The notes under the pieces: generated by a model
The model's input: the letters and a program-made list of their open reading frames with translations, nothing else
What the model was told of the DNA's origin: nothing
Databases searched by the model: none
Position numbers and translations under genes: made by a program
Assembly (NCBI GenBank): GCA_964465015.1
Contig: CAYXHP010000022.1
Coordinates: forward strand, 1,704-65,703
Length of the DNA stretch: 64,000 nucleotides
Direction of reading: 5' to 3'
Source of the DNA: an uncultured Gemmatimonadota bacterium
Lineage (GTDB): Bacteria > Gemmatimonadota > Gemmatimonadetes > Palauibacterales > Palauibacteraceae
Shown: positions 3,444 to 38,843 of the stretch, in pieces
Layout of the letters: each line of letters starts with the position of its first letter
Numbering within the stretch: position 1 is the stretch's first letter

Positions 3444-3490
3444 CCGACCCGGCCCGGCGAACCCACGTGCTCAGGGAGAGAGGGACGAGC

Positions 3491-5816: not shown

Positions 5817-5832
5817 CGGCACGCGAGGTGCA
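5817..5832 (+). promoter_or_regulatory. Candidate sigma-54 (RpoN) -24/-12 promoter in front of the PEP-CTERM protein gene.
   Basis: cGGCACGcgagGTGCA versus consensus TGGCACG-N4-TTGCA, with correct GG-N10-GC spacing. Sits in the 58-bp gap. Predicted TSS near 5843, giving a 26-nt leader with RBS GAGGAGG ahead of ATG 5869. Confidence 0.5.
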
Positions 5833-5868
5833 GGCATGACCCGCGGGTCACCGACCACGAGAGGAGGT

Positions 5869-6645
5869 ATGGTGATGACCAAGAGACGTTGGGCCTTCAT
5901 GATCGCGGCGGCGCTGCTGCTGGTGCCCGCCTACTACTTCTTAGGTCCGATGCTCGGGGCCCGGTCCGGTGCCTCGCACGCCCAGAGCGGACGTGGGCTG
6001 GCCAGCGCCGCGACGGTGCCGGCGGGAGCGTCGGCGGACGCGGGAATCGCCACGGCGGCATCGGGGGACCAGGGCGTCCCCACTGGCACGGCCCTGCGGT
6101 CGTCCGCGTCCCGGCGCTCGAGCGGCCGGTCGGCGGCGTCTCCCGCGCGCACGAAAGCCGCGGCCGGTGACGTGGCCCCCGGGGCCGAGGATGCCGGCTG
6201 CTCGCCGTCCTGGGCGCGCAGCTGTGGTCCGAACGACCGCCTGCTCGACGACACGCTGGCCGCCGCCGGCGCGTCGCTGGGGAGCTCGGATGGGGCTCCG
6301 ATGGCCACGGAGGCGCCGGTCCAGATCTCGCCGGCCGCCAGACGGGGCATGCTCGGCGCCGTGGCCGGCCTCGCCGGCGGTGGGATCGCCCTGGCGCTCA
6401 AGTCGGGCGGCCTGGCGGCCTCGGTGGACAACACGGGCGGAACCGTCGGCAACCCGAGCGGACCGAGCGGACCGAGCGGAAACGATCCGCCGTCGGACCC
6501 GCCGGGCCCGACGACCGCGACGCCGGAACCGCTGACCGGCACGCTGCTCGGACTGGGGCTCATGGGTTGGGCGGCCACGGAGCTGCGCCGCCGGCGTCAC
6601 ACCGGTGAGACCTCGACCGACGCCGGGGCGGACGGCATCAGCTGA
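5869..6645 (+). CDS. PEP-CTERM sorting-domain protein: secreted, low-complexity Ala/Ser/Gly-rich; an exosortase substrate.
   Basis: RBS GAGGAGG then ATG 5869. N-terminal signal/TM (MIAAALLLVPAYY). C-terminus is TPEPLTGTLLGLGLMGWAATELRRRRH, i.e. the PEP motif, a hydrophobic TM helix and an Arg cluster. Confidence 0.85.
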   Translation: MVMTKRRWAFMIAAALLLVPAYYFLGPMLGARSGASHAQSGRGLASAATVPAGASADAGIATAASGDQGVPTGTALRSSASRRSSGRSAASPARTKAAAGDVAPGAEDAGCSPSWARSCGPNDRLLDDTLAAAGASLGSSDGAPMATEAPVQISPAARRGMLGAVAGLAGGGIALALKSGGLAASVDNTGGTVGNPSGPSGPSGNDPPSDPPGPTTATPEPLTGTLLGLGLMGWAATELRRRRHTGETSTDAGADGIS

Positions 6646-6695
6646 CCGTCAAAGCCACGCGCCGTCTCCCCGGAGGGAGGCGCACATCGCTCGCC

Positions 6696-7505
6696 GTGGC
6701 CGCGGCCACGGTGAGCGCCTTCCTCCTCCTGTTCGGCCCCGGACTCGTGGAGCTGGTGGGTGACTGGCTCCGCGATACCGATTACCTGCACGGCTTCCTC
6801 CTCCTGGGCGTCGCGCTCTATCTGGCCTGGAGGGACCGCCGCCGCGCCGCGCCCTCCCCATCGCGCCGGGCGGGCGGTCTCGTCATCGGTGCCGCCGTGC
6901 TCCTCTTCCTCGTGGCCAGCGTCGCCTCGGAGCACTTCACGATGCGCCTGGCCGCGCTGGCGGCCGGTGCGGGCCTCGTCCTCTTCTACGTGGGCCCGGA
7001 GCAGCTTCGGGCGTGGTGGCTCCCCTTCGCACTCATGGTGTTCGCCATCCCGCTCCCGGAGGTCGTGGTGGGGACGGTGACGCTTCCTCTGCAGCTGTTC
7101 GCGTCGCGAAGCGCCGCGGCGCTGCTCCGGTTCCGGCATGTTCCGTCGACGGTCTCGGGCAACATCATCAATTTGCCGGGCCAGCGGCTGTTCGTGGCCC
7201 AGGCGTGCAGCGGCCTTCGGTCCCTGTCGGCCCTCTTCGGGCTCACGCTCCTCATGGGCGGCACCTGGCTCGACCGACCGGCCGACCGCATCGTGCTCCT
7301 GGTCGCCGCGCTCCCGGTGGCGTTGCTCGCGAACGTCTTCCGCATCTTCGTGACCGGCTTCCTGGCGTACTTCGTGGGCACGGGCGCGGTCACGGGCGAG
7401 GCACACGAGTCGGCGGGGCTCCTGGTGTTCGCGGCCGCCCTCGGCGTGCTCGGCCTGCTCGCCTGGATGTTGAAGAGCCGCGAGCGCTCGCGGGTGCGAG
7501 CGTGA
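6696..7505 (+). CDS. xrtA: Exosortase (XrtA/EpsH family transpeptidase).
   Basis: Polytopic membrane protein with the exosortase catalytic blocks: Cys in AQACSGLRS and the Asn-x-x-Arg in LANVFRIF. RBS GGAGGGAGG upstream of GTG 6696. It is followed by EpsI. Confidence 0.85.
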   Translation: MAAATVSAFLLLFGPGLVELVGDWLRDTDYLHGFLLLGVALYLAWRDRRRAAPSPSRRAGGLVIGAAVLLFLVASVASEHFTMRLAALAAGAGLVLFYVGPEQLRAWWLPFALMVFAIPLPEVVVGTVTLPLQLFASRSAAALLRFRHVPSTVSGNIINLPGQRLFVAQACSGLRSLSALFGLTLLMGGTWLDRPADRIVLLVAALPVALLANVFRIFVTGFLAYFVGTGAVTGEAHESAGLLVFAAALGVLGLLAWMLKSRERSRVRA

Positions 7506-8209
7506 GCGAGGTCGAGGGCGTGGGGGCGTCGCGGAGCGGCGCTGGCGGCGGTCGCCTGTGGGTGTCGCTCGTGCCCGCCGTGCTCCTGCTCCTCGGGGCG
7601 GGCGCCCGGACCGCGCTCCATCCCGGCCGCGAGCTGCCCCTCCAGGCCCCGCTCTCAGGCCTCGTGGGGTCCCTGGCGCGCTTCGGACCCTCGAGCGAGG
7701 TGCCTCTCGACCCGGCCAGCCGGAGCGTGCTGGCCGCCGACGACATCCTGTTCCGGAGGTATCGACCCTCGGGCGGAGGCGTCTTCGACGTCTTCGTGGC
7801 CTACTACGGTCGGCAGAAGGCGGGGAGCAGCATCCACTCCCCGCGGAACTGCCTCCCGGGGAGCGGCTGGGAGCCGCTGGAGCACCAGGAGGAGGCGGTG
7901 CATACGACCGTGGCGGATGGGCGGGTCAACCGCTACCTGGTCGAGGATGGCTCCGGCCGCCGCGCCCTCGTCTACTACTGGTACCAGGGGCGCGGGAGAA
8001 TCGTGGCGGACGAATACCGGGTGAAGTGGTACTTGCTTCGAGATGCCGTGCTCGAGCGACGCACGGACGAGGCCCTGATCCGGCTGGTGTTCGCGGTCGC
8101 ACCGGGCGAGACGGCCGACGTGGTGGCCGGGCGCACCCGTTCCTACGTGCAGCGGCTCGCCTCCGCCATGTGGGACTACCTTCCCCCCGCCAACGAGCCG
8201 GGGAGCTGA
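7502..8209 (+). CDS. epsI: EpsI family protein (exosortase-associated).
   Basis: GTG 7502 overlaps the exosortase stop (GTGA). N-terminal TM. Conserved block SIHSPRNCLPGSGW is typical of EpsI. The front half of long ORF 7013.. was rejected. Confidence 0.8.
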   Translation: MSEVEGVGASRSGAGGGRLWVSLVPAVLLLLGAGARTALHPGRELPLQAPLSGLVGSLARFGPSSEVPLDPASRSVLAADDILFRRYRPSGGGVFDVFVAYYGRQKAGSSIHSPRNCLPGSGWEPLEHQEEAVHTTVADGRVNRYLVEDGSGRRALVYYWYQGRGRIVADEYRVKWYLLRDAVLERRTDEALIRLVFAVAPGETADVVAGRTRSYVQRLASAMWDYLPPANEPGS

Positions 8210-8217
8210 CCGGGACG

Positions 8218-8967
8218 GTGCTCCGGGAGCGCCTGAGGAACCTGGCCGCCGTCCCCGTGCGCCGAGTGCGCAGTATCGCCGGGCTCCTGGAGCGCTGGCT
8301 TCACCCGCACCGCCGCCGGAGGGCCTCCGAGAGGGTGCGAGCCCTCTCCCCCCCGTTGCGCGTGGTGTTTCTCTGCCACGGCAACATCTGCCGGAGCCCT
8401 TACGCGGAGGCCGCATTCCGGGCCGCACTTCCGGCTGAGTTACGAGAGGAGATCAGGGTGTGCTCGGCCGGCTTCCACAAGTCGGGGCGCCCGAGCCCGG
8501 AGGAGGCGCGGCTCGAAGCGGCTTCCCGGGGCCTCGACCTGTCGGAGCACCGCTCTCGCCTGCTCGATCGGGAGACGGTCGAGGTCGCCGATCTGCTGGT
8601 CGTCATGGACGCCCGCCAGGCGCGGCGGCTCGAGGTCGGGTTTCTCGCGGCGCTGCGGGAGGCCGCGAGAACCGGCGGGCGGGCCGTCCGAGACCGTGGG
8701 CATGATGAGGTGGAGGTCGAACACGCCGAGGGCGAGGCCTCGGGCTCGGCCGGCGAAGAAGCTCTCTCCGCTGGCCAGGGAACAGCCGTGAGGGCCTCCG
8801 TGGAGACGTTGCCATCGGTGCTCGTGCTCGGTGACCTGGACTCGCAGATTCCGCCGCGGCGTGCCATCCGAGACCCTTATGGGCAGTCTCGCGAGGTGTT
8901 CGCCGACGTATTCGACCGCATCGACCGCTGCATCGGTACTCTCGCGGACCTCCTCCGGGGACCCTGA
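8218..8967 (+). CDS. Low-molecular-weight protein-tyrosine phosphatase (Wzb-like) carrying an internal ~50-aa acidic/Ala-rich insertion.
   Basis: P-loop VVFLCHGNICRSP. C-terminal IRDPYG ... DVFDRIDRCIGTLADLL (the DPY motif). Start ambiguous between GTG 8218 and GTG 8335; the latter leaves 10 aa before the P-loop and has GGAGGG upstream. Confidence 0.75.
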   Translation: MLRERLRNLAAVPVRRVRSIAGLLERWLHPHRRRRASERVRALSPPLRVVFLCHGNICRSPYAEAAFRAALPAELREEIRVCSAGFHKSGRPSPEEARLEAASRGLDLSEHRSRLLDRETVEVADLLVVMDARQARRLEVGFLAALREAARTGGRAVRDRGHDEVEVEHAEGEASGSAGEEALSAGQGTAVRASVETLPSVLVLGDLDSQIPPRRAIRDPYGQSREVFADVFDRIDRCIGTLADLLRGP

Positions 8968-9061
8968 CAGCGTGGTGCACATCGGCTCGCAGGAGGGCCC
9001 GGCCGCTGCGGGGTCGATACGGCTGCCGTGAAGCCGTCATTCCAGTCACCTGGGGGGCACT

Positions 9062-10267
9062 GTGACGCAGGATCGATCGGAGAGACGCGCCGGCCAGACG
9101 CGCAGGAGCCGGCGTCGTGCGCCGAAGCCGCTGACGTTGCTGGCCGTCGTGCTGGGCCTCTCCATTGGAGGGGAAGTCCTGCTGCGGCTCGAACCGCAGC
9201 TCTGTCCCCGTCAGGAGCAGTTGAAGATAGCCGAGACGACCGGGGGCTTCGACGACTTCGTCGACGATCCCTTGCTCGGAGCGCGTGCGCGCGGTGACGT
9301 GGACCAGGTGGAGCACACGCTCGACTACAGCTATCGCGTACGGCTCGATTCACTGGGATTCGCGAATGCCGAGCCGTGGCCCGATTCCGTGGAGGTGGCG
9401 GTCCTCGGCAACTCCCTCCTGTTCGGCCCGGGTGTGGGCCTGGAGGGCCAGTTCACGACTCTCATGGAGCGACAACTCGGTCCGGGGAGCGTTCTCAACC
9501 TGGGCCTGCCGGGCGGCTCGCCCATTCAGGAGCTACGGATCTACTCGAAGTACGCGGCGCCCCGACATCCACGAATCGTCATTGCCACCCTGTGGGTGGC
9601 CAGCGACGTCGACAATGCCGTCCAGTTCAGCCACTGGTTGTCGGAAGGCTCCCCGCCGGGCTTCACGGCCTACAGGATGGACTACCCCACCACCCATGGG
9701 AGCTTCACGTTTCTCCTTAGAGTGCGCGACTTGCTCAGCCGGTCCTATCTTCTCCGGGCCGCCTACTACTACGCCCGTTCGCTGGTCCGACCGGACAGCC
9801 TCACGGGCCGCGTGAGGTTCGAGAACGGTCAGGAGGTCTGGCTGTCCGTCCGGGAGGAGAGGCGGCTCGCCCGGGGGGCTCAGCGGCCGGGGCTGGACGT
9901 CGCGGACTTCATCGCACCTCTGCTCGAGCTACGTGCCCGGGCCGACTCGGCCGGTACCCGATTCGTGGTGGCCCTGCTGCCGAGCAAAGAGGAAGTCTAT
10001 GGCGCGTCGACGGATCCGGACGTCCTGAATACCGTGCGGGAGGTGCGAACGGCTCTCGACGCCGCCGACCTGCCCGTGGTGGACGTGTACCCGCCCTTCC
10101 GTTCCGAGGGCTTGGGCCGGCCGCTCTTCTACCGTCGAGACATCCACTTCAATCAGGACGGCAACGCCCTGGTTGCGCGAACCCTGCTCCGTTGGATCGC
10201 TCGACACGCTCCGTTGGAGACTCCCCGGGATACGAGGACCGCGCGGGAGGCGGGCGCGCCGCGATGA
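9062..10267 (+). CDS. Membrane-anchored SGNH/GDSL-hydrolase-like protein (paralog 1 of 4); a possible polysaccharide O-acyl esterase or transferase.
   Basis: GTG 9062 after a GGGGGG stretch. N-terminal TM (LTLLAVVLGLSIGG). Block I-like VAVLGNSLLFG and a DxxH block DIHFNQDGNALVA. Clearly paralogous to 22622..23911 and more distantly to 30998..32131(-) and 32340..33869(-). Confidence 0.7.
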   Translation: MTQDRSERRAGQTRRSRRRAPKPLTLLAVVLGLSIGGEVLLRLEPQLCPRQEQLKIAETTGGFDDFVDDPLLGARARGDVDQVEHTLDYSYRVRLDSLGFANAEPWPDSVEVAVLGNSLLFGPGVGLEGQFTTLMERQLGPGSVLNLGLPGGSPIQELRIYSKYAAPRHPRIVIATLWVASDVDNAVQFSHWLSEGSPPGFTAYRMDYPTTHGSFTFLLRVRDLLSRSYLLRAAYYYARSLVRPDSLTGRVRFENGQEVWLSVREERRLARGAQRPGLDVADFIAPLLELRARADSAGTRFVVALLPSKEEVYGASTDPDVLNTVREVRTALDAADLPVVDVYPPFRSEGLGRPLFYRRDIHFNQDGNALVARTLLRWIARHAPLETPRDTRTAREAGAPR

Positions 10268-10466
10268 TGGCGCTCCGGGCTCGGTCCGCCACAGGAGTGT
10301 TGCAGTCCGGCCACAACTGGAGAAGGGTACTCTCGCCGTCGCGGTCCCGTTCACACGGTGGGCGGCGCTCGGATGCGCGGGCGGGACGAGGGTATATCCC
10401 CCTGAACGCCAGTGAGTAAGAACCACGCTCGCCGCGCGTGCCGATCTTTACGCGGCCCCCCGTTCA

Positions 10467-10483
10467 ATGGTATGCTTTCTGCT
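10467..10483 (+). promoter_or_regulatory. Weak candidate sigma-54-type promoter (TGGTAT-N5-CTGC) in the AT-richer gap upstream of the GT2 gene.
   Basis: aTGGTATgctttCTGCt with GG-N10-GC spacing, inside the 380-bp lower-GC gap 10268..10649. Deviates from consensus at -24 (TAT instead of CAC). Confidence 0.25.
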
Positions 10484-10649
10484 CCGTTCAGCCGTCCGAG
10501 CCCGGCGGTAGGTCCGTTCGCCGGTACCGCGCACCGACCGTTCTCCGGGAGCCTTCGCATTGCCGCCAAGGACCAAACCCGCAGGTAACCGGGTCGACGT
10601 GCCAGGCGTGTCCCATCCTGCACAGAGCGTGGATGCTTTCCATGGTGGC

Positions 10650-11747
10650 ATGCCACGGACGGGGCGCGGACTCCGACCGTCCGTCTGCATGATCAACTTC
10701 AACGGCGCGGAATACCTGCGGGCATCGCTCGATGCACTGATGGGCATCGAGGCCTTCGTGGCCGAGATCCTCCTGGTCGACAACGCGTCGACCGATGGCA
10801 GTCGCGAGCTCGTGGAGACGCACTATCCGTCCGTGCGGGTCGTGGCGCTCGACGAGAACCGGGGAGCCGCCGCCGCTCGCAACGTCGCGCTGAGTGCTGC
10901 TCGAAGCGACGTGGTGTTGCTCCTGGATAACGATGTGACGCTGGCGGAGGCCGCGTTGGGCCGGCTGCTGGAGGCGCTGGGCGAGGACCCGTCCGTGGTG
11001 GCCGCGATGCCGGCCATCGTCTACGCCGGCGACCGTGAGACGGTTCAGTACGATGGAGCCGATGCCCACTTCCTGGGACAGCAGCTGCTCCACGACGAGG
11101 GCGTCCCCTACGAGACGCTGCCGATGGGCCAGCGCGACCTGGGCTCCGTCGTGAGCGCCTGCCTGGTGGTGCACCGCGGTCGCCTGCAGGAGAGAGCCGG
11201 CGGGGCGGAAGCCCTGGCGACCTTCGACGAAGACTTCTTCATCTACTTCGAGGATCACGATTTCGGCTATCGGATGAGAGCGCTCGGACTCCGGGTCGTG
11301 GCCGTGCCCCTGGCGCGCTGCTTCCACGAAGCGGGGACCCCCGGACTCTCCATCCGGGTCCTCGGATCGTACTCCGCTCTCCGGGTCTTCTGCCACATCA
11401 GGAACCGCTGGCTGTTCATCGCCAAGAACTATTCGCTTCGGACGCTGGCCGTGCTGGCGCCCATGCTGGTCGGCTACGAGGTCCTGCAGTTCGCCGCCTC
11501 GGCCAGGAAGGGGTGGCTCGCCCACTGGGCGCGCGCGGCAGGGTGGATGATTCGTCACCCGCGGCGGCTGGCCGCGAAGAGGAGACAGGTGCAACGGGCG
11601 CGCAGGGTGTCCGATGGTGAGCTGCTGAAGGGCGGCGCGGTACCGCTGAGGCGGGAGGCCATCGACACTCCGCTCGAGAGGGCCGCGAAGCGGCTCCTGG
11701 ATGTCGTGGCGGGGGGATACTGGCGACTGACGCGGGGGCTGCTCTGA
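10650..11747 (+). CDS. Family 2 glycosyltransferase.
   Basis: GT2 N-terminus PSVCMINFNGAEYL. DxD-like LLDNDV. ATG 10650 chosen because the upstream in-frame TTG 10560 region has low GC3 (non-coding character). Confidence 0.8.
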   Translation: MPRTGRGLRPSVCMINFNGAEYLRASLDALMGIEAFVAEILLVDNASTDGSRELVETHYPSVRVVALDENRGAAAARNVALSAARSDVVLLLDNDVTLAEAALGRLLEALGEDPSVVAAMPAIVYAGDRETVQYDGADAHFLGQQLLHDEGVPYETLPMGQRDLGSVVSACLVVHRGRLQERAGGAEALATFDEDFFIYFEDHDFGYRMRALGLRVVAVPLARCFHEAGTPGLSIRVLGSYSALRVFCHIRNRWLFIAKNYSLRTLAVLAPMLVGYEVLQFAASARKGWLAHWARAAGWMIRHPRRLAAKRRQVQRARRVSDGELLKGGAVPLRREAIDTPLERAAKRLLDVVAGGYWRLTRGLL

Positions 11748-11791
11748 GCAGCGGTCGAGGCAGGCGGGCGGGAGGGGCCGCCGGGTCGGAC

Positions 11792-13081
11792 GTGGCCGGT
11801 ACCGACCGTGCGGCGCCGACGGCCCGACGTCGTCTACGGATTGCGATCGTAGCCGCATGCCCCTTTCCGGAGCGGAGGGGAACTCCGGTCCGTATCGAGC
11901 GCATGGCCGAGTCCCTGTCGCGTCGGGGGCACGAGATCCACGTGGTCACGTACCCGTACGGCTCCGGAGAGGTGGCACCGGAGATCCTGGTCCACCGAGC
12001 GTCGCGGACCGGAACGCGATACAGGGCATTGCCGGGCCCTTCGCTGGACAAGCTCACGCTGCTCGACCCGCGGCTCGTGCGTGTCCTGCGGCGGCTTCTC
12101 CACAGCACGCCGATCGACGTCGTGTACGCGCACCACTACGAGGGGCTCCTGGTCGGGGCGGTCGCTCGAGCCGGGGTGGATGTGCCGCTCGTCTACGATG
12201 CGCACACGCTCTTGGCTTTCGAGCTGCCGGAGTACGGTCCGCGACTGCCGGTGCGGCTCAAGGGCGGGGTGGGTCGGGCGCTCGATCGTTGGCTACCGAC
12301 GCGGGCCGACCACGTCATCTCGGTCAGCTCGACGATCCGCGACTGGCTGCTCGAGTCGACGCGACTCGGTCCCGAAGACGTTACGGTCATCTCGAACGGG
12401 GTCTCCGCCGGGCTGTTCCCGGTCCCCGGACCGGACGATGTGCTGGGGGGCGGACGCATCGTGGTCTTCACGGGCAATCTCGCGGCCTACCAGGGCATCG
12501 AGCGTCTCCTGCGGGCCTTCCGGATCGTGGTCGACCAACGCCCCGACGCGCGGCTCCGGATCGTGACCGAGAGCTCCTTCACGGCCTACGAGGACCTCGC
12601 ACGGTCTCTCGGGATCCGCAGCTCGATCGACGTGGTCACGAGCGGCTTCGACGGAGTGCCGGCGCTGCTGGCGTCCGCCGACGTGGCCGTGAATCCGAGG
12701 CTCAACTGCACTGGAATCCCGCTGAAGCTCCTCAACTACATGGCGGCGTCGAAGCCCGTGGTCTCCTTCCGTAGCTCGGCCCCCGGTGTCGAACACGGTC
12801 GAACCGGCTGGCTGGCCGAGGACGGCGATGTCGAGGGGTTCGCCCACGGCATCCTGACGCTCCTGGGCGACCGAGCGAGGGCACGTTCGATGGGAGCGGC
12901 GGCTCGCTCGTTCGTCGAGGCCGAGCACACCTGGTCGAGGATGGCCGAGGCCGCGGAGGAGGTCTTCCTCTCGCTTCTCGATCCTTCGGTCGCCGACGTG
13001 CCCGCCGATGGTCTCTCGGCGTTGGAGATCGGCCGCTCGAGCGACGACATCTCCTCTCCCACCATGCGGAGCGGGACGTGA
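11792..13081 (+). CDS. Family 4 glycosyltransferase (GT-B, Glycos_transf_1).
   Basis: GTG 11792 with RBS GGGAGGGG about 18 nt upstream. N-terminal RIAIVAACPFPERRG and a C-terminal GT4 fold. Its stop overlaps the next GT4 start. Confidence 0.75.
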   Translation: MAGTDRAAPTARRRLRIAIVAACPFPERRGTPVRIERMAESLSRRGHEIHVVTYPYGSGEVAPEILVHRASRTGTRYRALPGPSLDKLTLLDPRLVRVLRRLLHSTPIDVVYAHHYEGLLVGAVARAGVDVPLVYDAHTLLAFELPEYGPRLPVRLKGGVGRALDRWLPTRADHVISVSSTIRDWLLESTRLGPEDVTVISNGVSAGLFPVPGPDDVLGGGRIVVFTGNLAAYQGIERLLRAFRIVVDQRPDARLRIVTESSFTAYEDLARSLGIRSSIDVVTSGFDGVPALLASADVAVNPRLNCTGIPLKLLNYMAASKPVVSFRSSAPGVEHGRTGWLAEDGDVEGFAHGILTLLGDRARARSMGAAARSFVEAEHTWSRMAEAAEEVFLSLLDPSVADVPADGLSALEIGRSSDDISSPTMRSGT

Positions 13082-14337: not shown

Positions 14338-14340
14338 TGG

Positions 14341-14799: not shown

Positions 14800-14810
14800 G
14801 AGTCTATAAC

Positions 14811-15236: not shown

Positions 15237-15238
15237 GC

Positions 15239-16816: not shown

Positions 16817-16817
16817 C

Positions 16818-17888: not shown

Positions 17889-17891
17889 GCT

Positions 17892-30918: not shown

Positions 30919-30997
30919 CGCCGTGCTCCCGAGCGCTGAGTTCAGGGCAGCCGGACAGTCGGCGGCGGGGGAAGGCGAGGTGACGGGCATTCGCACG

Positions 30998-32131
30998 TCA
31001 ATGGGAAAGTCCGCCGAGGCCATATTGCCCGGCGTCACGTTCGATCCGCGCCAGGACGGCGGCGGCAATGACACGGTATCCGGCCGCATCGGGATGACCA
31101 TCGACCTGGAAGAAGAGTCGCTTCTCCTGTCGGGCCTGCTCCTGCATGGGACCCGTGAGATCCAGATAGGGAATGCCCCGGCTGCGTAGTGCCTCGACCA
31201 GCGACGGGAGCAGCGGAGGGACCGTGTCTCCACGGAGCGGGAGGTACACGTCCTCCTTGGTCGGAAACACCAGGACGAGAAACGCCGTGCCGTGACTGGC
31301 TGCGATGGCCTGCGTCTTCTCGATGGATTCCATGACGCTCTGGAAGACGGGCTGATCCGGCTTGGCCAGCCCCACCTGATTCTCCAGGAACGAAGGCGCG
31401 AAGATGAGGCGGGTGTGGTCGGGAAACTCCATGGGTGGCGTGCTTCGGAACCGTCTCCTCAGGGTGCGGAAGGTCTCCGCCACGAACCAGTACACGTACG
31501 ATCGCTCGAGAATGGACTGCAGGAGACTGGGTGATCTTCCGTGACGGAACTTCCAGGTCGCGTAGCGTCCCGGACGGCCGGCGCGGAGCCAGCGATCGAA
31601 CTCCTGTTCGTCCTGCAGGTCGTTGCCCGGGAACAGTCCGAAGAGAAGGAGCTTGGGCTGAAAGGCCGTCCCGTACCGTTCGTAGACTCTCAAGTACTGC
31701 TTGGGCGCGTAGCCGGGCAGGCTCAGGTTGACGAGGCGGATGCCGGGGAGAGCTTCCTCGACGAGCGTCGACCACGTGGAATCGTAGTCCACGCCATAGC
31801 CGAAGCCCTCGGAGTCTCCGATCACGACGATCCCGGCCGAATCCGGCAAGGGGGATGGATTACGGAATCCGAGGGAGTCGGTCGCGTAGTCGAAACGTAC
31901 GTCGCCAGCGACTACCCGGCCGTGGTGATTGGGCGGATACAGGTAGCCAACATACGGGTCCGCTCTCTCGACATCGTCGTTGTCCTTCATCCAGTGGATC
32001 TTCACCCGTGCGGAGGCGGGCAGGTTGTTCGGGAACTCCCGAAGGAAGGCTTCCGTGCAGGCGAGTATGACGAGGACGCTGGCCAGAAGCAGTCCGAGAT
32101 TGACGAGGATGCGTTTCGCGGTCGAGGGCAT
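30998..32131 (-). CDS. Membrane-anchored SGNH-hydrolase-like protein (paralog 3 of 4).
   Basis: Start at internal ATG (MPSTAKRILVNLGLLLASVLVIL, a signal anchor). GDS block VVIGDSEGFGYG. DGHP block QVDGHPDAAGYRVIA. Confidence 0.7.
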   Translation of the reverse strand: MPSTAKRILVNLGLLLASVLVILACTEAFLREFPNNLPASARVKIHWMKDNDDVERADPYVGYLYPPNHHGRVVAGDVRFDYATDSLGFRNPSPLPDSAGIVVIGDSEGFGYGVDYDSTWSTLVEEALPGIRLVNLSLPGYAPKQYLRVYERYGTAFQPKLLLFGLFPGNDLQDEQEFDRWLRAGRPGRYATWKFRHGRSPSLLQSILERSYVYWFVAETFRTLRRRFRSTPPMEFPDHTRLIFAPSFLENQVGLAKPDQPVFQSVMESIEKTQAIAASHGTAFLVLVFPTKEDVYLPLRGDTVPPLLPSLVEALRSRGIPYLDLTGPMQEQARQEKRLFFQVDGHPDAAGYRVIAAAVLARIERDAGQYGLGGLSH

Positions 32132-32339
32132 CTTCCATCTCTGTCCGGGGCCGTGGCGAAGGCCTGAGGCTTCCCCCTGAAGACGGTTGCTCATACGACT
32201 GGGTCCTGCAGGTTGAATGCCGGACCAAAGTGAGGGATGAAGGCGGACGCGGCCATGCCGCGCGAGGAGTCCGGGCCGCGGCATCGGCAGCGTGCTTCTG
32301 AACTCGGGAGGTGCGGGGACGACGGACCTCGGTGCTCCA

Positions 32340-33869
32340 TCAAGCCTTGGGTCGAGGCGAGAGCGGTCGCGTGTCGTCGGCGTGCGACACTCGGTGTGTC
32401 GCCGCATCCCCACGTGCCGACGGGGTCGACGAGACGTGGGGTGCAGTCCGGCCTCCCGGCTCGAGCGGCACGGCGCGCGCGGGTCTCCAGAGACCATCGC
32501 GAGCGATGGCCTGGACCGAGAGGCTGGCGGCCAGGCGCTGTCCCGCATTGCTCCAGTGATCGTTACCGCCTCGGAGATAGAGCGCGGCCGGATCGTGCGA
32601 CCGGAAGGCCGGGAACAGGTTCAGGGTCGGGATGGAGTCCTGCCGGCCTATGGCTTCGACCACTGCCGACAGGTTGGACCTCTGGTAGGCCGGGTAGAGG
32701 GACGAGTCGACCCGGTAGACGTAGCCCGGCACCTCGTCCTCGGCCGTCGGGATGATCAGCAGGAGCATCGGGATCCCGTGGCTCCGAACCACGCTGTCCA
32801 TTCGGGTGATGACCCGATCCATGAGGGTCACCTTGTACCGGGCCGATGGTCCGTCCGGCGCCGCGCTGACGTCGGCATCGTAGCCGTCGGCGAGCAGGTT
32901 CGTGACCACATCGTCGTGTCCGAGGACGTAGTCCCGGTACTCGGCCTCGCGATCTCGCATCCACTCCCGGGTGGTCGTGGCGGAGGCCGGGTTGCCCTCG
33001 ACGGGAACCTCGTCGCCCTCCGGCACGAACCGGCTCGATTCGAGGCGGTCCACGGTGCGCTCGAACAGCTTCAGGACCAGCGGCCCGTGTCGCGCCATCA
33101 GGAACTTGCGGCGAACGGACCCGGCCAGCCTGTAGTGGTTCCGAACCAGCCGGCCCCCGGAGTCCAGTCGGAAGAGCTTGTTCCGGAGGAGGTCGCCGAA
33201 GTCGTTGCCGGTGTAGATGCTGACGATGACGAGGTCGGGCTTGAGCCGCGTCAGATCGCGCTCCATTCGGATGCACTCTTGATCGGGACCGTAGCCGGTC
33301 ACCCCAGCGTTCACGACCTCGACTGGCGTGCGGAAGTAGGCCCCGAGCATGCGCTGGAGCTGGCTCGTGTAGGTGTCGGCCTCAGCGGAGTACTCCGCGG
33401 CGATGAACGAGTCGCCGAACACCACGACCCGTCGTGAGCTGTCTGCCGACCCGCGCAGCTCGGGTCCGCGGAAGCCTTGCCGGTCGATGTGCACGCGGAT
33501 CGTCTGGCCGCCGTTGATCGGCAACCGATGATAGTCCCGGCTGGCCGCCGGTATGTACTCGAACAGGTCGTCCGACCGCAGCCGGAAGAGCGTGGAGAAG
33601 TCGTCGGGGACCGTGAGGCGGAGTCCGATTTCGGCGATCACCAGACCGATCAGGGACGAAGCGGTGAGCAGCAGCAGCCGCGTTCTCCACTTGCTGGACG
33701 CCAGGCCCGCGGCCACGACCACGGCGCCGAAGGCTGCCACCAGGATCTGAGACCATCCGGGACCGGATCGCTGAGGGCTCGATGGGCAGACGGTGACAGC
33801 GACCACGAGGACCAGCATCCCGAAGATGCCGAGGGCTATCCTGGTCGCCGGCCTCCGCTCCTGTTCCAT
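32340..33869 (-). CDS. Membrane-anchored SGNH-hydrolase-like protein (paralog 4 of 4) with a 3-TM N-terminus.
   Basis: Start at internal ATG (MEQERRPATRIALGIFGMLVLVV), with GGAGG 6 nt upstream on the minus strand. GDS block VVVFGDSFIAAEY. GGNDHWSNAG (DxxH). Confidence 0.65.
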   Translation of the reverse strand: MEQERRPATRIALGIFGMLVLVVAVTVCPSSPQRSGPGWSQILVAAFGAVVVAAGLASSKWRTRLLLLTASSLIGLVIAEIGLRLTVPDDFSTLFRLRSDDLFEYIPAASRDYHRLPINGGQTIRVHIDRQGFRGPELRGSADSSRRVVVFGDSFIAAEYSAEADTYTSQLQRMLGAYFRTPVEVVNAGVTGYGPDQECIRMERDLTRLKPDLVIVSIYTGNDFGDLLRNKLFRLDSGGRLVRNHYRLAGSVRRKFLMARHGPLVLKLFERTVDRLESSRFVPEGDEVPVEGNPASATTTREWMRDREAEYRDYVLGHDDVVTNLLADGYDADVSAAPDGPSARYKVTLMDRVITRMDSVVRSHGIPMLLLIIPTAEDEVPGYVYRVDSSLYPAYQRSNLSAVVEAIGRQDSIPTLNLFPAFRSHDPAALYLRGGNDHWSNAGQRLAASLSVQAIARDGLWRPARAVPLEPGGRTAPHVSSTPSARGDAATHRVSHADDTRPLSPRPKA

Positions 33870-34024
33870 GCAGCCTCCGGAAATCTCGGGTTTGCCATCC
33901 TCCGGCCGTGACTTCCCGTGCATGCATGCAGCGTGCGAGTCTCGGTCCAGGCCGGTCCCGATCCGAGAGGGGAGGCGTCGCCGACGGCGCGGCCATCCGC
34001 AGACCCCAAGTGACATAACGAGAA

Positions 34025-34040
34025 GGGCACATTCCGTGCG
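34025..34040 (+). promoter_or_regulatory. Candidate sigma-54 -24/-12 promoter in the divergent intergenic region upstream of the carbamoyltransferase operon.
   Basis: gGGCACattccGTGCg with GG-N10-GC spacing. Sits 300 nt upstream of ATG 34341 in an AT-richer 470-bp gap. A sigma-70-like TTGAAA-N16-TAGATA (34162..34189) is also present. Confidence 0.35.
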
Positions 34041-34340
34041 GCTGTGGCCGGCCCGACTCGGCTGTGCCGGTCGCAGCGGATGGCGGTGTGCGGCTCCGGC
34101 GTCTGTTGCAATGTGCCTACAAGATCGGCAGACCGCCGCGGCGAGCCCCGAACGCAGGACTTTGAAAAGCTATTCATCCCAACTAGATACGCTCATCACC
34201 TGTTGGACGGAGGAATGGCGTACTTATCTTGCACAGCGTGGCTGCCCGAGAAGAACGCGCGGCCGGCCGCCGTGCGAAATCACGCTGATCCGTTCGGCGC
34301 ACGTGTGGCCCCGGCGAGGGTTCAGGAAGGACGTTCATAC

Positions 34341-36308
34341 ATGGCTTCAGACCTTTCGATGCAGACCCGGCATTCCTCCGGGAGCGCCGGCTCGCCCGGC
34401 AGCCCGCGCTACGTTCTGGGCCTGTCGGCCTTCTACCACGACAGCGCCGCGTGCCTGCTCCGGGACGGGGAGATCGTGGCCGCTGCTCAGGAGGAGCGCT
34501 TCACGAGAGAGAAGGGAGACGCCTCGTACCCTTCCCACGCCGTGGAGTATTGCCTGAAGGAAGGCGGCATCTCGGTCGCCGATCTCGAGGTCGTCGCTTT
34601 CTACGACAAGCCGCTCCTGAAGTTCGAGCGAATCCTGGAGACGTATGTGGGCATCGCTCCCAGGGGCTTCCGCTCCTTCCTGAAGGCGGGACCGCTGTGG
34701 ATCAAAGAGAAACTCTTCATCGACCGCGACCTGGCGGACCAGCTGGGCTGGGAGGGCGACATCCTCTACGCCGAGCATCACGAGTCCCACGCGGCCAGCG
34801 CATTCTACCCGTCACCGTTCGACGAAGCCGCGATCGTCACGATGGACGGCGTCGGCGAATGGGCCACTGCGTCCATCGGAGTGGGGCGGGGCAGCGAGAT
34901 CGAGCTCCTGCGGGACCTTCGGTGGCCCGACTCCCTGGGACTGCTCTACTCGGCCTTCACGTACTACACGGGCTTCAAGGTCAACTCGGGCGAATACAAG
35001 GTGATGGGGCTGGCGCCTTACGGCGAGCCCAGGTTCGTCGACCTCATCCTCGGCGAGCTGATGGACTTGCGCGACGACGGCTCCTTCCGGTTGAACCAGG
35101 AGTACTTCGACTACCTGGGCGGACTGACGATGACGAGCCGCAAGTTCGATGAGCTGTTCGGTGGCCCGCCGCGTTCGCCCGAATCGAAGATCACGCAGCG
35201 GGAGATGGACCTGGCCCGATCGGTCCAGGAGGTGTGCGAGGAAGTCATGCTCCGGATGGTACGCACCGCGCACCGTGAGACCGGGCTGTCGAACCTCTGC
35301 CTGGCGGGCGGGGTGGCGCTGAACTGCGTGGGGAACGGCCGCATCCTCCGGGAAGGGCCTTACGAGGAGCTGTGGATCCAGCCGGCCGCCGGCGATGCCG
35401 GAGGCGCGCTGGGCGCGGCGCAGCTCGCGTGGCACCGCCACCTGGGGCAGGAGCGCGCGCCGGCCTCCGTGTACGCGGTGAGTGCCGGCGCGGTCGAAGA
35501 GCGGCAAGTCGCCGAGGCCGGCGGTGGCACCGCGGTGGCGACGCGCCCGCGGGCCCGGGACCGGATGCGAGCCGCCTGCCTGGGCCCCTCCTTCAGCCCT
35601 GAAGAGATCGAGACCTATCTGGCGACGCGCGGCGCACCCGCCCACAAGCTCGATCGCGAGGCGTTGATCGAGCGGACCGCGGAGCTCCTCTCAGACGGCA
35701 ACGTGGTGGGCTGGTTCGCCGGCCGCATGGAGTTCGGGCCACGTGCCCTGGGATCGAGGAGCATCCTGGGCGACCCGCGAAGCCCCGAGATGCAGCGCAC
35801 GATGAACCTCAAGATCAAGTTCAGGGAGAGCTTCCGTCCATTCGCGCCGAGCGTCTTGCTGGAGCGGGTCCAGGACTACTTCGACCTGGATCGTGAGTCT
35901 CCCTACATGCTCCTGGTCGCGCCCGTGCGCGAGGAGCGCAGGTGTCCTCCGGCGGAGGGCGACTCGGAGCTGTGGGGCATCGAGCGACTGAATCGCCCAC
36001 GCTCGGACATCCCCGCCGTGACGCACGTGGACTACTCGGCTCGCGTGCAGACCGTCTCGGCGGAAGACAACCCGGCCTACCACGCTCTCCTGTCCGCCTT
36101 CGAGCGGCGCACGGGATGCGGCTTGCTCGTGAACACATCGTTCAACGTGAGGGGCGAACCGATCGTCTGTTCGCCTCGGGACGCGTATCGCTGCTTCATG
36201 CGGACGCACATGGATTGCCTGGTCCTGTGGCCGTACCTCCTCTTCAAGGAGGAGCAGCCGGAATGGCACGAGGAGGGAGATTGGAGAGAGAAGATACCGC
36301 TCGACTGA
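34341..36308 (+). CDS. Carbamoyltransferase (NodU/CmcH family; probably O-carbamoylation of a sugar).
   Basis: RBS AGGAAGGA then ATG 34341. Carbam_trans_N (VLGLSAFYHDSAACLL ... HHESHAASAF) and C-terminal domain. The first 99 codons of ORF 34044.. have non-coding character. Confidence 0.85.
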   Translation: MASDLSMQTRHSSGSAGSPGSPRYVLGLSAFYHDSAACLLRDGEIVAAAQEERFTREKGDASYPSHAVEYCLKEGGISVADLEVVAFYDKPLLKFERILETYVGIAPRGFRSFLKAGPLWIKEKLFIDRDLADQLGWEGDILYAEHHESHAASAFYPSPFDEAAIVTMDGVGEWATASIGVGRGSEIELLRDLRWPDSLGLLYSAFTYYTGFKVNSGEYKVMGLAPYGEPRFVDLILGELMDLRDDGSFRLNQEYFDYLGGLTMTSRKFDELFGGPPRSPESKITQREMDLARSVQEVCEEVMLRMVRTAHRETGLSNLCLAGGVALNCVGNGRILREGPYEELWIQPAAGDAGGALGAAQLAWHRHLGQERAPASVYAVSAGAVEERQVAEAGGGTAVATRPRARDRMRAACLGPSFSPEEIETYLATRGAPAHKLDREALIERTAELLSDGNVVGWFAGRMEFGPRALGSRSILGDPRSPEMQRTMNLKIKFRESFRPFAPSVLLERVQDYFDLDRESPYMLLVAPVREERRCPPAEGDSELWGIERLNRPRSDIPAVTHVDYSARVQTVSAEDNPAYHALLSAFERRTGCGLLVNTSFNVRGEPIVCSPRDAYRCFMRTHMDCLVLWPYLLFKEEQPEWHEEGDWREKIPLD

Positions 36309-36685
36309 CGCCGACCGAGGGGCGCAAGTTCGGCCTGACGGTCGGTGCCGCCTTCCTGGTCCTGGGAGGCATATCCTACTGGCGCGGCCACCGAATCCCC
36401 GTGTTCGTCCTCGGCGGTCTCGGCCTGCTCCTCGTGCTCGGCGGCCTGGTCGTGCCAGGTCGGCTCGGGCCCGTCGAGCGCGCCTGGATGGGCCTGGCGA
36501 AGGCGATCTCACGGGTCACCACGCCCATCTTCATGGCGGTCGTATACTTCCTGGTCCTCACGCCGGCCGGTGTCATCGTCCGTTGGGTTGGACACGACCC
36601 GCTGCTGCACGAGGCGGAAGAGGGAAGCTACTGGAGGTCGCGCTCCATGTCGGAAGGCAAGAGCGACCTCACGCGACAGTTCTAG
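36263..36685 (+). CDS. SxtJ-like small membrane protein.
   Basis: EGRKFGLTVGAAFLVLGGISYW and two more TM helices, typical of the SxtJ family that co-occurs with carbamoyltransferases. Start uncertain: ATG 36263 overlaps the upstream gene by 46 nt. Confidence 0.55.
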   Translation: MARGGRLEREDTARLTPTEGRKFGLTVGAAFLVLGGISYWRGHRIPVFVLGGLGLLLVLGGLVVPGRLGPVERAWMGLAKAISRVTTPIFMAVVYFLVLTPAGVIVRWVGHDPLLHEAEEGSYWRSRSMSEGKSDLTRQF

Positions 36686-36702
36686 GACGGAGGAGCGTAG
36701 AC

Positions 36703-36861
36703 ATGGCTCGACGTTCGATGGCGGGCGAGATTTGGGACTTCCTGAAGGTTCGCAAGAAGTGGTGGCTCCTGCCCATCATTGTCATGCTCGCGGCGGTGGG
36801 CGCGCTGATCGTGTTCGCGCAGGGCTCGGCGCTGGCGCCGTTCATCTACACGATCTTCTAG
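36703..36861 (+). CDS. DUF5989-like small membrane protein (52 aa).
   Basis: MAGEIWDFLKVRKKWWLLPIIVMLAAVGALIVFAQG is the conserved small protein found after carbamoyltransferase and SxtJ. RBS GGAGCG. Internal Met of ORF 36583..36861. Confidence 0.6.
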   Translation: MARRSMAGEIWDFLKVRKKWWLLPIIVMLAAVGALIVFAQGSALAPFIYTIF

Positions 36862-36864
36862 CTT

Positions 36865-38514
36865 CTAGCGTCCCGCGGCGGGTGTCTCTCCAGGGCCCAT
36901 GGCCCGGGAGGACGCGTCTCCCCCGCGGCCGGTGACGGCGGCCAGGATGGCCTGTGCGCGGGTCCGGGCCGCCGGCGAGGCTGGCCCTCGAACTGCGAGC
37001 TCGGTTCGTCGCTCGAGGAGGTCGGCGATCGTGCATGCCATCTCGCACTCGGCGCCGTAGGCCAGTTGCGCGCCGAACACCGGAGAATCGACCTCGATCC
37101 TCTCCAGGAGCTCCGGCCGGTCGGCGGCGAGGGCCAGGACGTCCCGGAACCTTGCGCCGTGCGTATGGAGAAGGTGGGCGCGACAGTCGGTCGGCAGAAA
37201 GCCGACCTCCTCGTCGGCCTGCCGGGTCAGCTCGCTCCAAGACGAAAGCCGGCCACCCGGCAACGGGGTGTCGGCGGTTCGACACGGCGGGACGCTGTTC
37301 TCCAGGAAGCGAAACACGCGACCGACCGTCTCCTGGGCCACCCACCTCGCCGTGGTGAACTTGACCGGTAAGACCGAAAAGGCGCCCGGTGTGCCGGACG
37401 ACGCGTGGTCGGTGATGCGGTCATGGCGCAGCAGGCGCACCGGCTCGGTGGGTGCGGTGCGCAGCGCCGGCAGTAACCCGTGCTGCACCCCCAGTACCTG
37501 GTCGGATCGGATGCGAAGTCCGGTACCCGGCGCGTTCACTTCCTCCAGGAAGCGCTCCACGTAGAGAGCCGTGTCGAGGACGGCCGAAGGTGCCATCCGG
37601 TAGTGGGCCGTTCCGATGAGAGTTCGGCTTCGCCACGGCGCCACGAAGAGCCGGCGGGCACCCATGTGCACGACGGAGCCGGGGTCGGATGTCCTGCCAG
37701 CCACGGTGAAGGCGACATCGTGAACGGGGTGGTCGACCACCAGGTTGAGGGCCACCGACAGCGTCACATCCGGGCTGGCCCCGTCCAGGCCCCACTGACC
37801 GGCGAGGTGCAGCGCCTGCGCTCCCGTGGCGTTGACGAGCGATCTCGTATGTATGTCGAGCGCGCCGCCGGAGAGCAGGTCCGTACAGCGAACGCGCAGG
37901 CCGTCGCGGCTGGCCGTGATCGCCCGGGCTTCCACGTGGTTGGCGAGCGCGGCGCCGTCCTGCTCCGCCGCGCACACGATGTCGAGCACGAGGCGGGTGG
38001 GACTGTACATCTGGGCGTCGTGGAAGACCACGGCTCCGGTGAGGTCCGGGTCGTCGATCTCCGGGGCCCGTTCCAGGGCTTCCCGCCGTGAGAGAGCGTG
38101 GCCCGGCGGCAGGTGCCGGGCCGGGTCGAGTCCGCGATTCCGGTCCCGGCCCATTAGGTCGATCACGGCGAGGGCCGCACGAAGGAGAGGCCGGCGCGCC
38201 GCGCCCCTTCGATACGTGGGCACCAGGAAGGGGAGCGGTTCCACCAGGTGGGGCGCCACACGCAGCCACATCGAGCGCTCGCGTATGGAGCGTCGCGCGC
38301 CGAGCAGCTCCAACCGCTGGAGATAGCGAAGGCCGCCGTGAATCGTCCGAAAGCACTGCGCCGATGCGCCCGCTCCGAAGTCCGCCCGTTCTACGAGACC
38401 CACCCGGAGACCGCGCTGTGCCGCGTCGCGAGCGACCCACGCTCCGGTCACCCCTCCACCGATCACCAGAAGGTCCAGCAGGTCGTCCGACAGTCCGGTG
38501 AGGTCTCGTATCAT
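36865..38514 (-). CDS. FAD-dependent glycerol-3-phosphate dehydrogenase-like oxidoreductase (GlpD/DAO family).
   Basis: N-terminal LVIGGGVTGAWVARDAAQRGLRVGLVE ... FGAGASAQCFRTIHGGLRYL dinucleotide-binding and GlpD-like blocks. Convergent with the DUF5989 gene. Confidence 0.75.
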   Translation of the reverse strand: MIRDLTGLSDDLLDLLVIGGGVTGAWVARDAAQRGLRVGLVERADFGAGASAQCFRTIHGGLRYLQRLELLGARRSIRERSMWLRVAPHLVEPLPFLVPTYRRGAARRPLLRAALAVIDLMGRDRNRGLDPARHLPPGHALSRREALERAPEIDDPDLTGAVVFHDAQMYSPTRLVLDIVCAAEQDGAALANHVEARAITASRDGLRVRCTDLLSGGALDIHTRSLVNATGAQALHLAGQWGLDGASPDVTLSVALNLVVDHPVHDVAFTVAGRTSDPGSVVHMGARRLFVAPWRSRTLIGTAHYRMAPSAVLDTALYVERFLEEVNAPGTGLRIRSDQVLGVQHGLLPALRTAPTEPVRLLRHDRITDHASSGTPGAFSVLPVKFTTARWVAQETVGRVFRFLENSVPPCRTADTPLPGGRLSSWSELTRQADEEVGFLPTDCRAHLLHTHGARFRDVLALAADRPELLERIEVDSPVFGAQLAYGAECEMACTIADLLERRTELAVRGPASPAARTRAQAILAAVTGRGGDASSRAMGPGETPAAGR

Positions 38515-38827
38515 GTGAACCTCCTGCCGCAGGACCTGAACCAGAGCCGCGATTCGGTCCGCTCAGGGTGGACGCCGGTGGGGAGGTGCTGACGCTTCGA
38601 TGGCCGACACCATTCTAACCCATGGCGAGAGCAGGCACCGGATGGGCCACCCGTGAGATCCGCCTGGCCGATGGGTGCGACACGAGGCTGCCGATGCTCC
38701 CGCCATTCCCCGGAAGGACGGGCCGATGTAGGATGCATGCAACGGTCGGAGACGGCCACAGATGTCCCTGGACTCCACAAACCCCTGGGACCGGGTACGA
38801 TGCGGCGCCGGCCGCGAGGGCCGAGCG

Positions 38828-38843
38828 CGGCACGACCATTGCC
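38828..38843 (+). promoter_or_regulatory. Candidate sigma-54 -24/-12 promoter immediately upstream of the GT2 operon.
   Basis: cGGCACGaccaTTGCc: near-perfect TGGCACG-N4-TTGC with correct spacing, inside the 340-bp divergent gap. The predicted TSS falls only a few nt ahead of ATG 38857 (leaderless-like), which lowers confidence. Confidence 0.4.

Follow-up and report, generated by a model that had tools for sequence, protein, structure and literature searches.

The 64-kb stretch of DNA analyzed here (the window) is an exosortase/PEP-CTERM-type exopolysaccharide locus of an uncultured Gemmatimonadota-like bacterium. On its plus strand, a histidine kinase gene and the gene of an NtrC-family activator are followed by genes for polysaccharide export (2640-3443), a priming sugar transferase and a REC-domain protein, then by an HpsJ-like gene, a PEP-CTERM-like gene (5875-6645), exosortase plus EpsI and many glycosyltransferase genes; later in the same order come a carbamoyltransferase/SxtJ/DUF5989 triad (34338-36861) and, from 38857, a GT2/GT2/XrtA-type deacetylase/FemAB operon. 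The exosortase passes its family model (TIGR02602, 152.9 against a cutoff of 105.55), and EpsI passes its model as well. Genes were called with a codon-usage model, their starts were corrected by the database's own gene calls and by orthologue alignments, and product names were taken from NCBIfam and Pfam scans of 50 window proteins. The related set consists of 93 metagenome-derived loci (L001-L093), among which the nearest relatives are Gemmatimonadota/Longimicrobiales-like metagenome-assembled genomes with 57-73% protein identity. Here, we describe -24/-12 (sigma-54-type) promoter elements in front of operons of this locus together with a conserved 18-bp palindrome that precedes them, and we consider it probable that the locus is switched on through sigma-54 promoters paired with this enhancer.

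Predicted promoter elements and the palindrome paired with them

A sequence-only reading of the window had proposed sigma-54 promoters in front of operons at four places, three intergenic copies of GGCAC-N5-(T/G)TGC (5817, 34025 and 38828) and a TGGTAT-N5-CTGC site that it took to be weaker (10468). All four motifs are there on direct reading, each on the plus strand, intergenic and with the spacing GG-N10-GC. Over the whole window, GGCAC-N5-KTGC is found three times against 1.33 expected from shuffles, and the total is not significant since 19 of 100 shuffles hold at least three; in the intergenic DNA (~5.1-5.6 kb, ~9% of the window) the three copies compare with 0.14 expected (P≈0.003), and in genic DNA none is found against 1.5 expected. 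Please note that this pattern was picked after the sites had been seen. We then scored 128,000 positions with a general sigma-54 matrix, as log-odds against a background of 69% guanine plus cytosine (GC). Intergenic DNA holds seven matches of at least 9.4 bits (1.27 expected; 0 of 1000 shuffles) and 21 of at least 6.6 bits (5.55 expected; 0 of 1000 shuffles), 15 of the latter being co-directional with the next gene. The intergenic GC content (0.676) is about that of the window average, and base composition therefore does not explain the intergenic excess of promoter or palindrome matches. Site 10468 ranks first of all positions (17.3 bits), which inverts the ranking first given to it; 38828 is fifth (11.3 bits), 5817 fifteenth (9.5 bits) and 34025 fifty-seventh (6.7 bits, background level). 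The comparison of matrix scores with background thus gives a divided answer, i.e., the intergenic set is enriched, whereas the single scores of 5817 and 38828 are equalled by genic matches. A second, lineage-specific matrix built from 25 sites of the relatives separated intergenic from genic matches no better and penalized 38828 for a C at -11; it was not relied on.

A conserved palindrome, TGT(T/G)GC-N6-GC(A/C)ACA, is found both in the window and in the relatives, and it is the predicted enhancer that the sequence-only reading could not recognize. With a matrix built from nine palindromes of the relatives only, the window has six intergenic matches of at least 11.5 bits against 0.126 expected (0 of 2000 shuffles; ranks in Table 1). 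The sixth-ranked match (21496) overlaps with a start codon and appears to be accidental. In the reverse direction, a matrix from four window sites was run on 61 regions upstream of carbamoyltransferase orthologues; 26% of them reach at least 12 bits, compared with 1.7% of 1405 control windows.

The six window palindromes each precede a -24/-12-type element facing an operon, 38-171 nucleotides (nt) on. Four of these elements (2423, 34216, 45570 and 58416) are absent from the sequence-only reading. The spacing GG-N10-GC holds for 2423, 5817, 10468, 34025, 38828 and 58416, and fails for 34216 and 45570, where it is N12. Of the four sites proposed at first, only two, 10468 and 38828, belong to the predicted enhancer-promoter set; the shared upstream palindrome expected by that reading is present for both of them, in the case of 10468 with P<0.01, whereas 34025 has none and 5817 has a half site only. 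The proposal of sigma-54 promoters before the operons is thus carried by the intergenic enrichment, the conserved enhancer and the relatives, and it probably does not extend to 34025.

Element 2423 became intergenic once the start of the export gene had been corrected to 2640, and it has GGTATG-N4-CTGCT in common with 10468. Its positional homologues after the activator gene of the relatives read TGGTGCG-N4-YTGCA (L001, L084 and L087) or AGGCTTGGATCTTGCT (L093), and the same motif as the 2386 palindrome lies 67-68 nt ahead of the promoter in L084 and L087. At the other end of the scale, 58416 shares CCCATCTTGC with the 45570 element and has only 6.35 bits with the lineage matrix. A minus-strand match at 58612-58627 in the same divergent region was not adopted as promoter, as it would put the enhancer inside its own transcript.

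Table 1. Regulator genes, palindromes and promoter-type elements of the window. Distances run from the palindrome start to the GG of the element; bits and ranks of palindromes are those of the relatives-only matrix.
Feature	Position	Strand	Details
Sensor histidine kinase gene, 5' part cut by the window start	3-956	+	HisKA and HATPase_c; best NCBIfam matches AtoS and ZraS; partner of the activator gene
NtrC-family sigma-54 enhancer-binding protein gene	953-2320	+	REC (PF00072), AAA+ (PF00158, 244 bits), Fis-type helix-turn-helix (PF02954)
Enhancer-like palindrome TGTGGA-CCGGGT-GCCACA	2386-2403		12.2 bits, rank 4, intergenic
Sigma-54-type promoter gGGTATG-gatc-CTGCT	2423-2438	+	38 nt from 2386; before the export/sugar-transferase/REC/HpsJ/exosortase operon
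Half enhancer TGTTGCA	5719-5725		Inside the HpsJ-like gene; 99 nt upstream of 5817
Candidate promoter cGGCACG-cgag-GTGCa = cGGCACGcgagGTGCa	5817-5832	+	43 nt ahead of the PEP-CTERM-like gene; lineage-matrix rank 10
Predicted enhancer palindrome TGTTGC-AGTCCG-GCCACA	10298-10315		19.2 bits, joint top, intergenic
Predicted sigma-54 promoter TGGTATG-cttt-CTGCT = TGGTATGctttCTGCT	10468-10483	+	171 nt from 10298; 206 nt ahead of the GT2 gene at 10689; best in the window
GGCAC match gGGCACA-ttcc-GTGCg = gGGCACAttccGTGCg	34025-34040	+	Lineage-matrix rank 1430
Predicted enhancer palindrome TGTTGC-AATGTG-CCTACA	34104-34121		16.3 bits, rank 3, intergenic; ahead of the carbamoyltransferase operon, in the divergent region
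Atypical -24/-12-like element TGGCGTACTTATCTTGCA, GG-N12-GC	34216-34233	+	113 nt from 34104; 105 nt before ATG 34338
Weaker enhancer-like palindrome TGTAGG-ATGCAT-GCAACG	38727-38744		11.6 bits, rank 7, intergenic; P=0.03 for a search stretch of this length
Conserved sigma-54-type promoter cGGCACG-acca-TTGCc = cGGCACGaccaTTGCc	38828-38843	+	102 nt from 38727; GT2/GT2/deacetylase/FemAB operon; -12 C 15 nt before ATG 38857
Enhancer-like palindrome TGTCGC-GCGAGT-CCTACA	45457-45474		12.1 bits, rank 5, intergenic; precedes the GT4 gene (45616)
Twin of 34216, CGGCGTACCCATCTTGCA, GG-N12-GC	45570-45587	+	114 nt from 45457; ~30 nt before the GT4 start codon
Predicted enhancer palindrome TGTGGC-GCGAAC-GCAACA	58281-58298		19.2 bits, joint top, intergenic; divergent region 58233-58669
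Weak -24/-12-like candidate gGGcccc-catc-TTGCg	58416-58431	+	136 nt from 58281; before an O-antigen-ligase-like gene; GG-N10-GC; read by eye, tentative

The relatives repeat this arrangement. In the exosortase cassettes of seven of them, sigma-54 sites follow the activator gene and further ones precede the sugar-transferase and HpsJ genes, and the distance to the palindromes is fixed at 67-68 nt or 91-94 nt. A carbamoyltransferase orthologue is present in 80 metagenome loci, and canonical sites, e.g., TGGCATGCGTCTTGCT, TGGCACCGGAATTGCA and TGGCGTGAGAATTGCT, are found 45-190 nt upstream of its conserved N-terminus. At a threshold of at least 12 bits, these upstream regions hold ten sites on the plus strand versus one on the minus strand; at 11 bits or more, the count by spacing is eight for N10, five for N9 (weaker, none reaching 13 bits) and zero for N8, N11 and N12. 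The -12 C of these promoters is typically 37-75 nt ahead of the start codon, and in many of the loci TGTTGC-N6-GCAACA lies ~100 nt ahead of this site.

A second palindrome type, TGTGGG-N6-GCCATA, was seen in the exosortase cassettes of four relatives (L001 at 7395, L085 at 9324, L086 at 7072 and L087 at 1953), and L093 has the consensus-type palindrome TGTGGCCGCCGTCCAACA in its place (8097). In all five, the palindrome is followed at 91-94 nt by a sigma-54 site that precedes a gene for a sugar transferase or HpsJ. The short gap 3444-3505 of the window has no counterpart of the TGTGGG-N6-GCCATA palindromes.

Motifs, enrichment, pairing and conservation are thus read directly from the window and its relatives. 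What we infer from them is the protein that binds the palindrome (the activator), the sigma factor in use (sigma-54) and where transcription would start. In the proposed mechanism, the phosphorylated NtrC-family activator would bind the palindromes, which precede at least six transcription units, and, with looping of the DNA and hydrolysis of ATP, open sigma-54 holoenzyme complexes at the promoters. In this way, the operons for polysaccharide export, exosortase, glycosyltransferases and carbamoyltransferase would come on together.

Several observations weigh against sigma-54 control of this kind. The relatives, at 57-73% protein identity, are too distant for base-by-base footprinting, and the general matrix is an approximation to the Barrios 1999 compilation and not a published table. 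Genic matches reach 12-16 bits, as high as 5817 and 38828, and scores alone do not separate intergenic from genic sites. The 2386 enhancer is unusually close to its promoter, and the Shine-Dalgarno-like GAGAGG would fall outside a transcript from 38828. Of the six elements linked to an enhancer, three are non-canonical: 34216 and 45570 show GG-N12-GC (at N10 spacing, they would have CG at -25/-24), and 58416 is without the YAY core.

If these points are taken at full weight, one arrives at a locus with no sigma-54 control at all, in which the -24/-12 matches are chance occurrences in GC-rich DNA and the palindrome is the operator of an ordinary factor acting on sigma-70- or ECF-type promoters; the genic scores, the lack of canonical GG-N10-GC in half of the palindrome-linked elements and a TTGAAA-N16-TAGATA visible by eye at 34162-34189 all fit it. 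We consider this very unlikely, as the enrichment in the relatives is specific to N10 spacing and to one strand, the palindrome-promoter distances are fixed, the gene of a GAFTGA activator stands directly upstream of a conserved site, and the layout at 38828 is conserved at P≈7e-8. The sigma-70 scan gave nothing relevant at these regions; together with the terminator scan, it returned one irrelevant promoter-like match in 33.8-39 kb. Sigma-54 promoters paired with the 18-bp enhancer remain the reading that we prefer.

Sites at the carbamoyltransferase, GT2 and PEP-CTERM-like genes

Site 34025 lies upstream of the carbamoyltransferase operon, as the sequence-only reading had it, and the promoter role assigned to it there is not borne out. 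Its score is at background, it is itself a hairpin (GCAC-ATTCC-GTGC) flagged by the terminator scan, and no enhancer was found upstream of it (0.2 bits, P=0.8). The true carbamoyltransferase start (ATG 34338) is 298 nt further downstream, with the 34104 enhancer in between. A real promoter at 34025 seems unlikely, and a chance match is the most likely explanation; exact-pattern matches to GGCAC-N5-TGC in GC-rich DNA are not trustworthy one at a time. Element 34216, the best N12-spaced match in the window (13.5 bits), is a better candidate. The relatives have canonical N10 sites at its position, and the 34104-type motif is found upstream of many carbamoyltransferase orthologues. L003 and L004, the closest carbamoyltransferase relatives, have a TTTTGC element with which MAFFT aligns 34216; they also have a canonical site, CGGCATGCSGCTTGCT, in a distal position comparable to that of 34025, followed by a TGTGGC-type half site. 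By eye, the region of 34025 is similar to theirs, though local alignments with the two loci do not reach significance (P=0.05-0.28). The enhancer-linked element of the carbamoyltransferase operon that matches the layout of the relatives is probably 34216 and not 34025.

On the minus strand of the same divergent region, TGGACCGAGACTCGCA is found at 33934-33949, 65 nt before a divergent GDSL/AlgX-like gene (start 33869). It is ~156 nt from the 34104 palindrome, and the palindrome could therefore serve both divergent operons. Within the operon, a 52-amino acid DUF5989 gene (36703-36861, plus strand; Pfam, E=1.5e-25) had been overlooked by the codon-usage gene caller. With it, the carbamoyltransferase, SxtJ-like and DUF5989 genes form a triad like SxtI/J/K, and the carbamoyltransferase-SxtJ pair is found in 51 of the 80 metagenome loci.

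The N12 spacing of 34216 has one parallel, its twin at 45570. Both contain GGCGTAC-NN-ATCTTGCAC, with 16 of 18 bases shared, and both have CG in place of GG when read at N10. The DNA between enhancer and element is unrelated in the two copies. Such likeness at the same distance from the enhancer (113 and 114 nt) despite unrelated intervening DNA suggests a selected functional element rather than decay. In the 93 related loci, GGCGTAC-NN-ATCTTGC has no match, and none of the relatives shows N12 spacing. Sensitivity to spacing is a known property of sigma-54 promoters, and it may be asked whether control is mixed, with 2423, 10468 and 38828 under sigma-54 while 34216, 45570 and 58416 use another sigma factor or are decayed and silent; the carbamoyltransferase operon would then be transcribed from 34025 or from a sigma-70-type promoter. 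The proximal element of L003 and L004 is also without GG at N10, yet they have their canonical distal site, as such a division of labor would have it. Against the decay that mixed control allows for, the twins keep both their sequence and their enhancer distance, and we regard mixed control as quite unlikely. If 34216 and 45570 are active as enhancer-linked sigma-54 promoters, they would break the strict spacing rule of this class.

Site 38828 is conserved in relatives. At orthologues of its GT2 gene, the succession of palindrome, GG-N10-(T/C)TGC, 13-16 nt and ATG is present in four of six related lineages (AGGCACCTCAGCTGCT in L034/L040, cGGCCCCGGACTTGCT in L089, CGGCACACGCGTTGCC in L090 and CGGCACGAGGGTTGCC in L092), for which the measured motif density gives a chance probability of ~7e-8. 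The palindrome, rather weak in the window, has stronger counterparts at the orthologous positions in L089, L090, L091 and L092. The start site predicted from 38828 is at, or within ~3 nt of, the start codon, and L089 to L091 have no Shine-Dalgarno sequence. A predicted start this close to the ATG, together with a Shine-Dalgarno sequence that is not conserved, points to a leaderless or nearly leaderless mRNA of the GT2 operon. If this is true, activator-dependent transcription yields a leaderless or nearly leaderless mRNA for a glycosyltransferase operon. That the two unusual layouts are real, i.e., the near-leaderless sigma-54 promoter (conserved in five lineages) and the enhancer-linked GG-N12-GC elements, is a possibility we put forward with considerable doubt. 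The locus nevertheless offers two test cases for sigma-54 promoter rules, the near-leaderless layout and the 12-nt spacing.

A sigma-54-like sequence, TGGTTCAGGTCCTGCG, is also seen on the minus strand at 38528-38543, 14 nt ahead of a divergent GlpD-like gene (start 38514), a layout as at 38828. We rejected it as a conserved site, as it has no counterpart upstream of the DAO gene of L091.

Site 5817 is positioned as first described, ahead of the PEP-CTERM-like gene, although that gene stays below the PEP-CTERM cutoffs. Its protein ends in TPEP-LTGTLLGLGLMGWAA-ELRRRR and a 15-residue tail and scores just under both models (PF07589, 18.8 against 20.7; TIGR02595, 9.6 against 16). It is an orphan, with only its self-match among 5.8 billion proteins, and no PEP-CTERM-like C-terminus was found in L001-L082. 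The HpsJ and exosortase genes are adjacent in all seven related cassettes; in the window, the PEP-CTERM-like gene is inserted between them. The spacing of 5817 fits a promoter, with a predicted start ~30 nt before the start codon and GAGGAGG in between. No full palindrome was found upstream of it (best enhancer-matrix score, 1.9 bits). Its half enhancer is a TGTTGCA, a heptamer that occurs only three times in the window and elsewhere only in the enhancers 10298 and 34104; this was noticed after the fact and is of modest weight. Once the enhancer-supported sites are removed, the two remaining co-directional intergenic matches at the score level of 5817 fit background expectation. In relatives, a sigma-54 site is often seen just upstream of HpsJ and exosortase (L085, L092 and L093), which makes an internal promoter at 5817 plausible. 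Whether 5817 is an internal promoter, from which the inserted PEP-CTERM-like gene and exosortase would be transcribed, is a nearly balanced question, and we lean slightly against it on the sequence features at hand. A perfect 12-nt palindrome, GACCCGCGGGTC, is located at 5838-5849, exactly at the start predicted from 5817.

Riboswitches and uncalled stretches

Apart from these sites, the window carries two c-di-GMP-I riboswitch aptamers on the plus strand (Rfam RF01051), at 50519-50609 (67.6 bits) and 51728-51816 (78.2 bits); the gathering score is 35. Each is upstream of a lipoprotein-like gene with Big_2-like immunoglobulin repeats (50672-51445 and ~51947-54016, respectively). A sigma-54-like AGGCATGGTGCTCGCA at 50464-50479 (9.9 bits) lies 40 nt ahead of the first aptamer. 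Another sigma-54 matrix match, at 51787 on the minus strand, is an artefact, as it sits within the second aptamer of the opposite strand. Two long stretches, 51446-52240 and 54017-55050, are without a confident gene call, the former including the second riboswitch; around them, the GC content is lower (0.64-0.65 in 2-kb windows spanning 52001-56000).

The activator and known sigma-54 systems

A sigma-54 enhancer-binding regulator in the locus had been expected by the sequence-only reading, and the activator at 953-2320 has the REC, AAA+ and Fis-type domains of one, with GAFTGA and Walker A both visible in its translation. Exact look-up of its protein sequence gave no match. Its assignment to PrsR, the activator of the PrsK/PrsR system, does not stand, as TIGR02915 (PrsR) gives 388.5 bits against a cutoff of 502.6, whereas the AtoC (482.7) and NtrC (430) models score higher. 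By its family scores, the activator is NtrC-family, not PrsR. Its partner kinase has a syntenic counterpart in the kinase-activator pair of the relatives, where the kinase is ~400 amino acids long with a HAMP-HisKA-HATPase layout that is unlike PrsK (TIGR02916). PrsT (TIGR02917) had no match among the 50 window proteins, and the hexamers TTTACA and TGTAAA occur zero times in the 64-kb window, i.e., the 17-nt proteobacterial PEP-CTERM box is absent from it.

These results bear on the sequence-only reading as it was written, in which the three GGCAC-N5-KTGC sites are operon promoters driven by a PrsK/PrsR PEP-CTERM-box system. The three sites are indeed intergenic, point towards the gene that follows and have the correct spacing; TIGR02915 comes third among the models for the activator, and the canonical distal site of L003 and L004 could be seen as a counterpart of 34025. 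We nevertheless find this version highly improbable, given the background score of 34025 and its missing enhancer, the non-significant alignment with those two relatives, and a host that is not a proteobacterium. Membership in PrsK/PrsR/PrsT fails, judged from the predicted proteins and motifs, on every defining feature tested (activator score, kinase type, PrsT and TTTACA box).

The palindrome itself is comparable to the sites of other activators. NifA binds TGT-N10-ACA, and the TyrR box is TGTAAA-N6-TTTACA. Like these, the window palindrome is a dyad whose outer triplets are TGT and ACA and which precedes a -24/-12 promoter; unlike these, its outer triplets are 12 nt apart (TGT-N12-ACA), and its inner ones are TGC/GCA.

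As for PEP-CTERM systems, PrsR/sigma-54 control of PEP-CTERM genes has been predicted in Proteobacteria only, and the PEP-CTERM box (motif 1), which is 17 nt long, ends in TTTACA and is located 32-92 nt upstream of the sigma-54 site, has been reported only there (Haft et al. 2006, PMC1569441). The window resembles that PrsK/PrsR/PrsT arrangement in having an NtrC-family regulator beside exosortase/exopolysaccharide genes, and an activator motif followed by a -24/-12 promoter ahead of PEP-CTERM and polysaccharide genes. It differs in its activator, which is below the PrsR cutoff, in its short HAMP-HisKA kinase, in the missing PrsT match and in its Gemmatimonadota-like host. The enhancer TGTTGC-N6-GCMACA is unlike the PEP-CTERM box, and its targets in the window are mostly biosynthetic operons, not single PEP-CTERM genes. 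In Aquincola tertiaricarbonis, experiments have demonstrated that pepA, which is a PEP-CTERM gene, is RpoN1-dependent, with a TGGCAC...CTGCTT promoter and an upstream enhancer (PMC9850573); pepA has a mapped start and a genetic RpoN test, whereas 5817 is known from sequence alone and is without a full enhancer or an orthologue. Sigma-54 has also been linked to exopolysaccharide genes across phyla, by inference (Francke et al. 2011, PMC3162934), in a general survey without the enhancer motif or the operon set of this lineage.

Sigma-54 control of PEP-CTERM/exosortase systems had previously been described for Proteobacteria only, by way of PrsR and its TTTACA box, and an analogous regulon is now reconstructed for an exosortase polysaccharide locus in Gemmatimonadota-like bacteria of soil and sediment, with a different activator subfamily and a different, defined enhancer that is usable to predict the regulon in metagenome-assembled genomes. 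We consider it a lineage-specific version of a known control type and not a new mechanism, with the same regulatory logic as in the proteobacterial systems.

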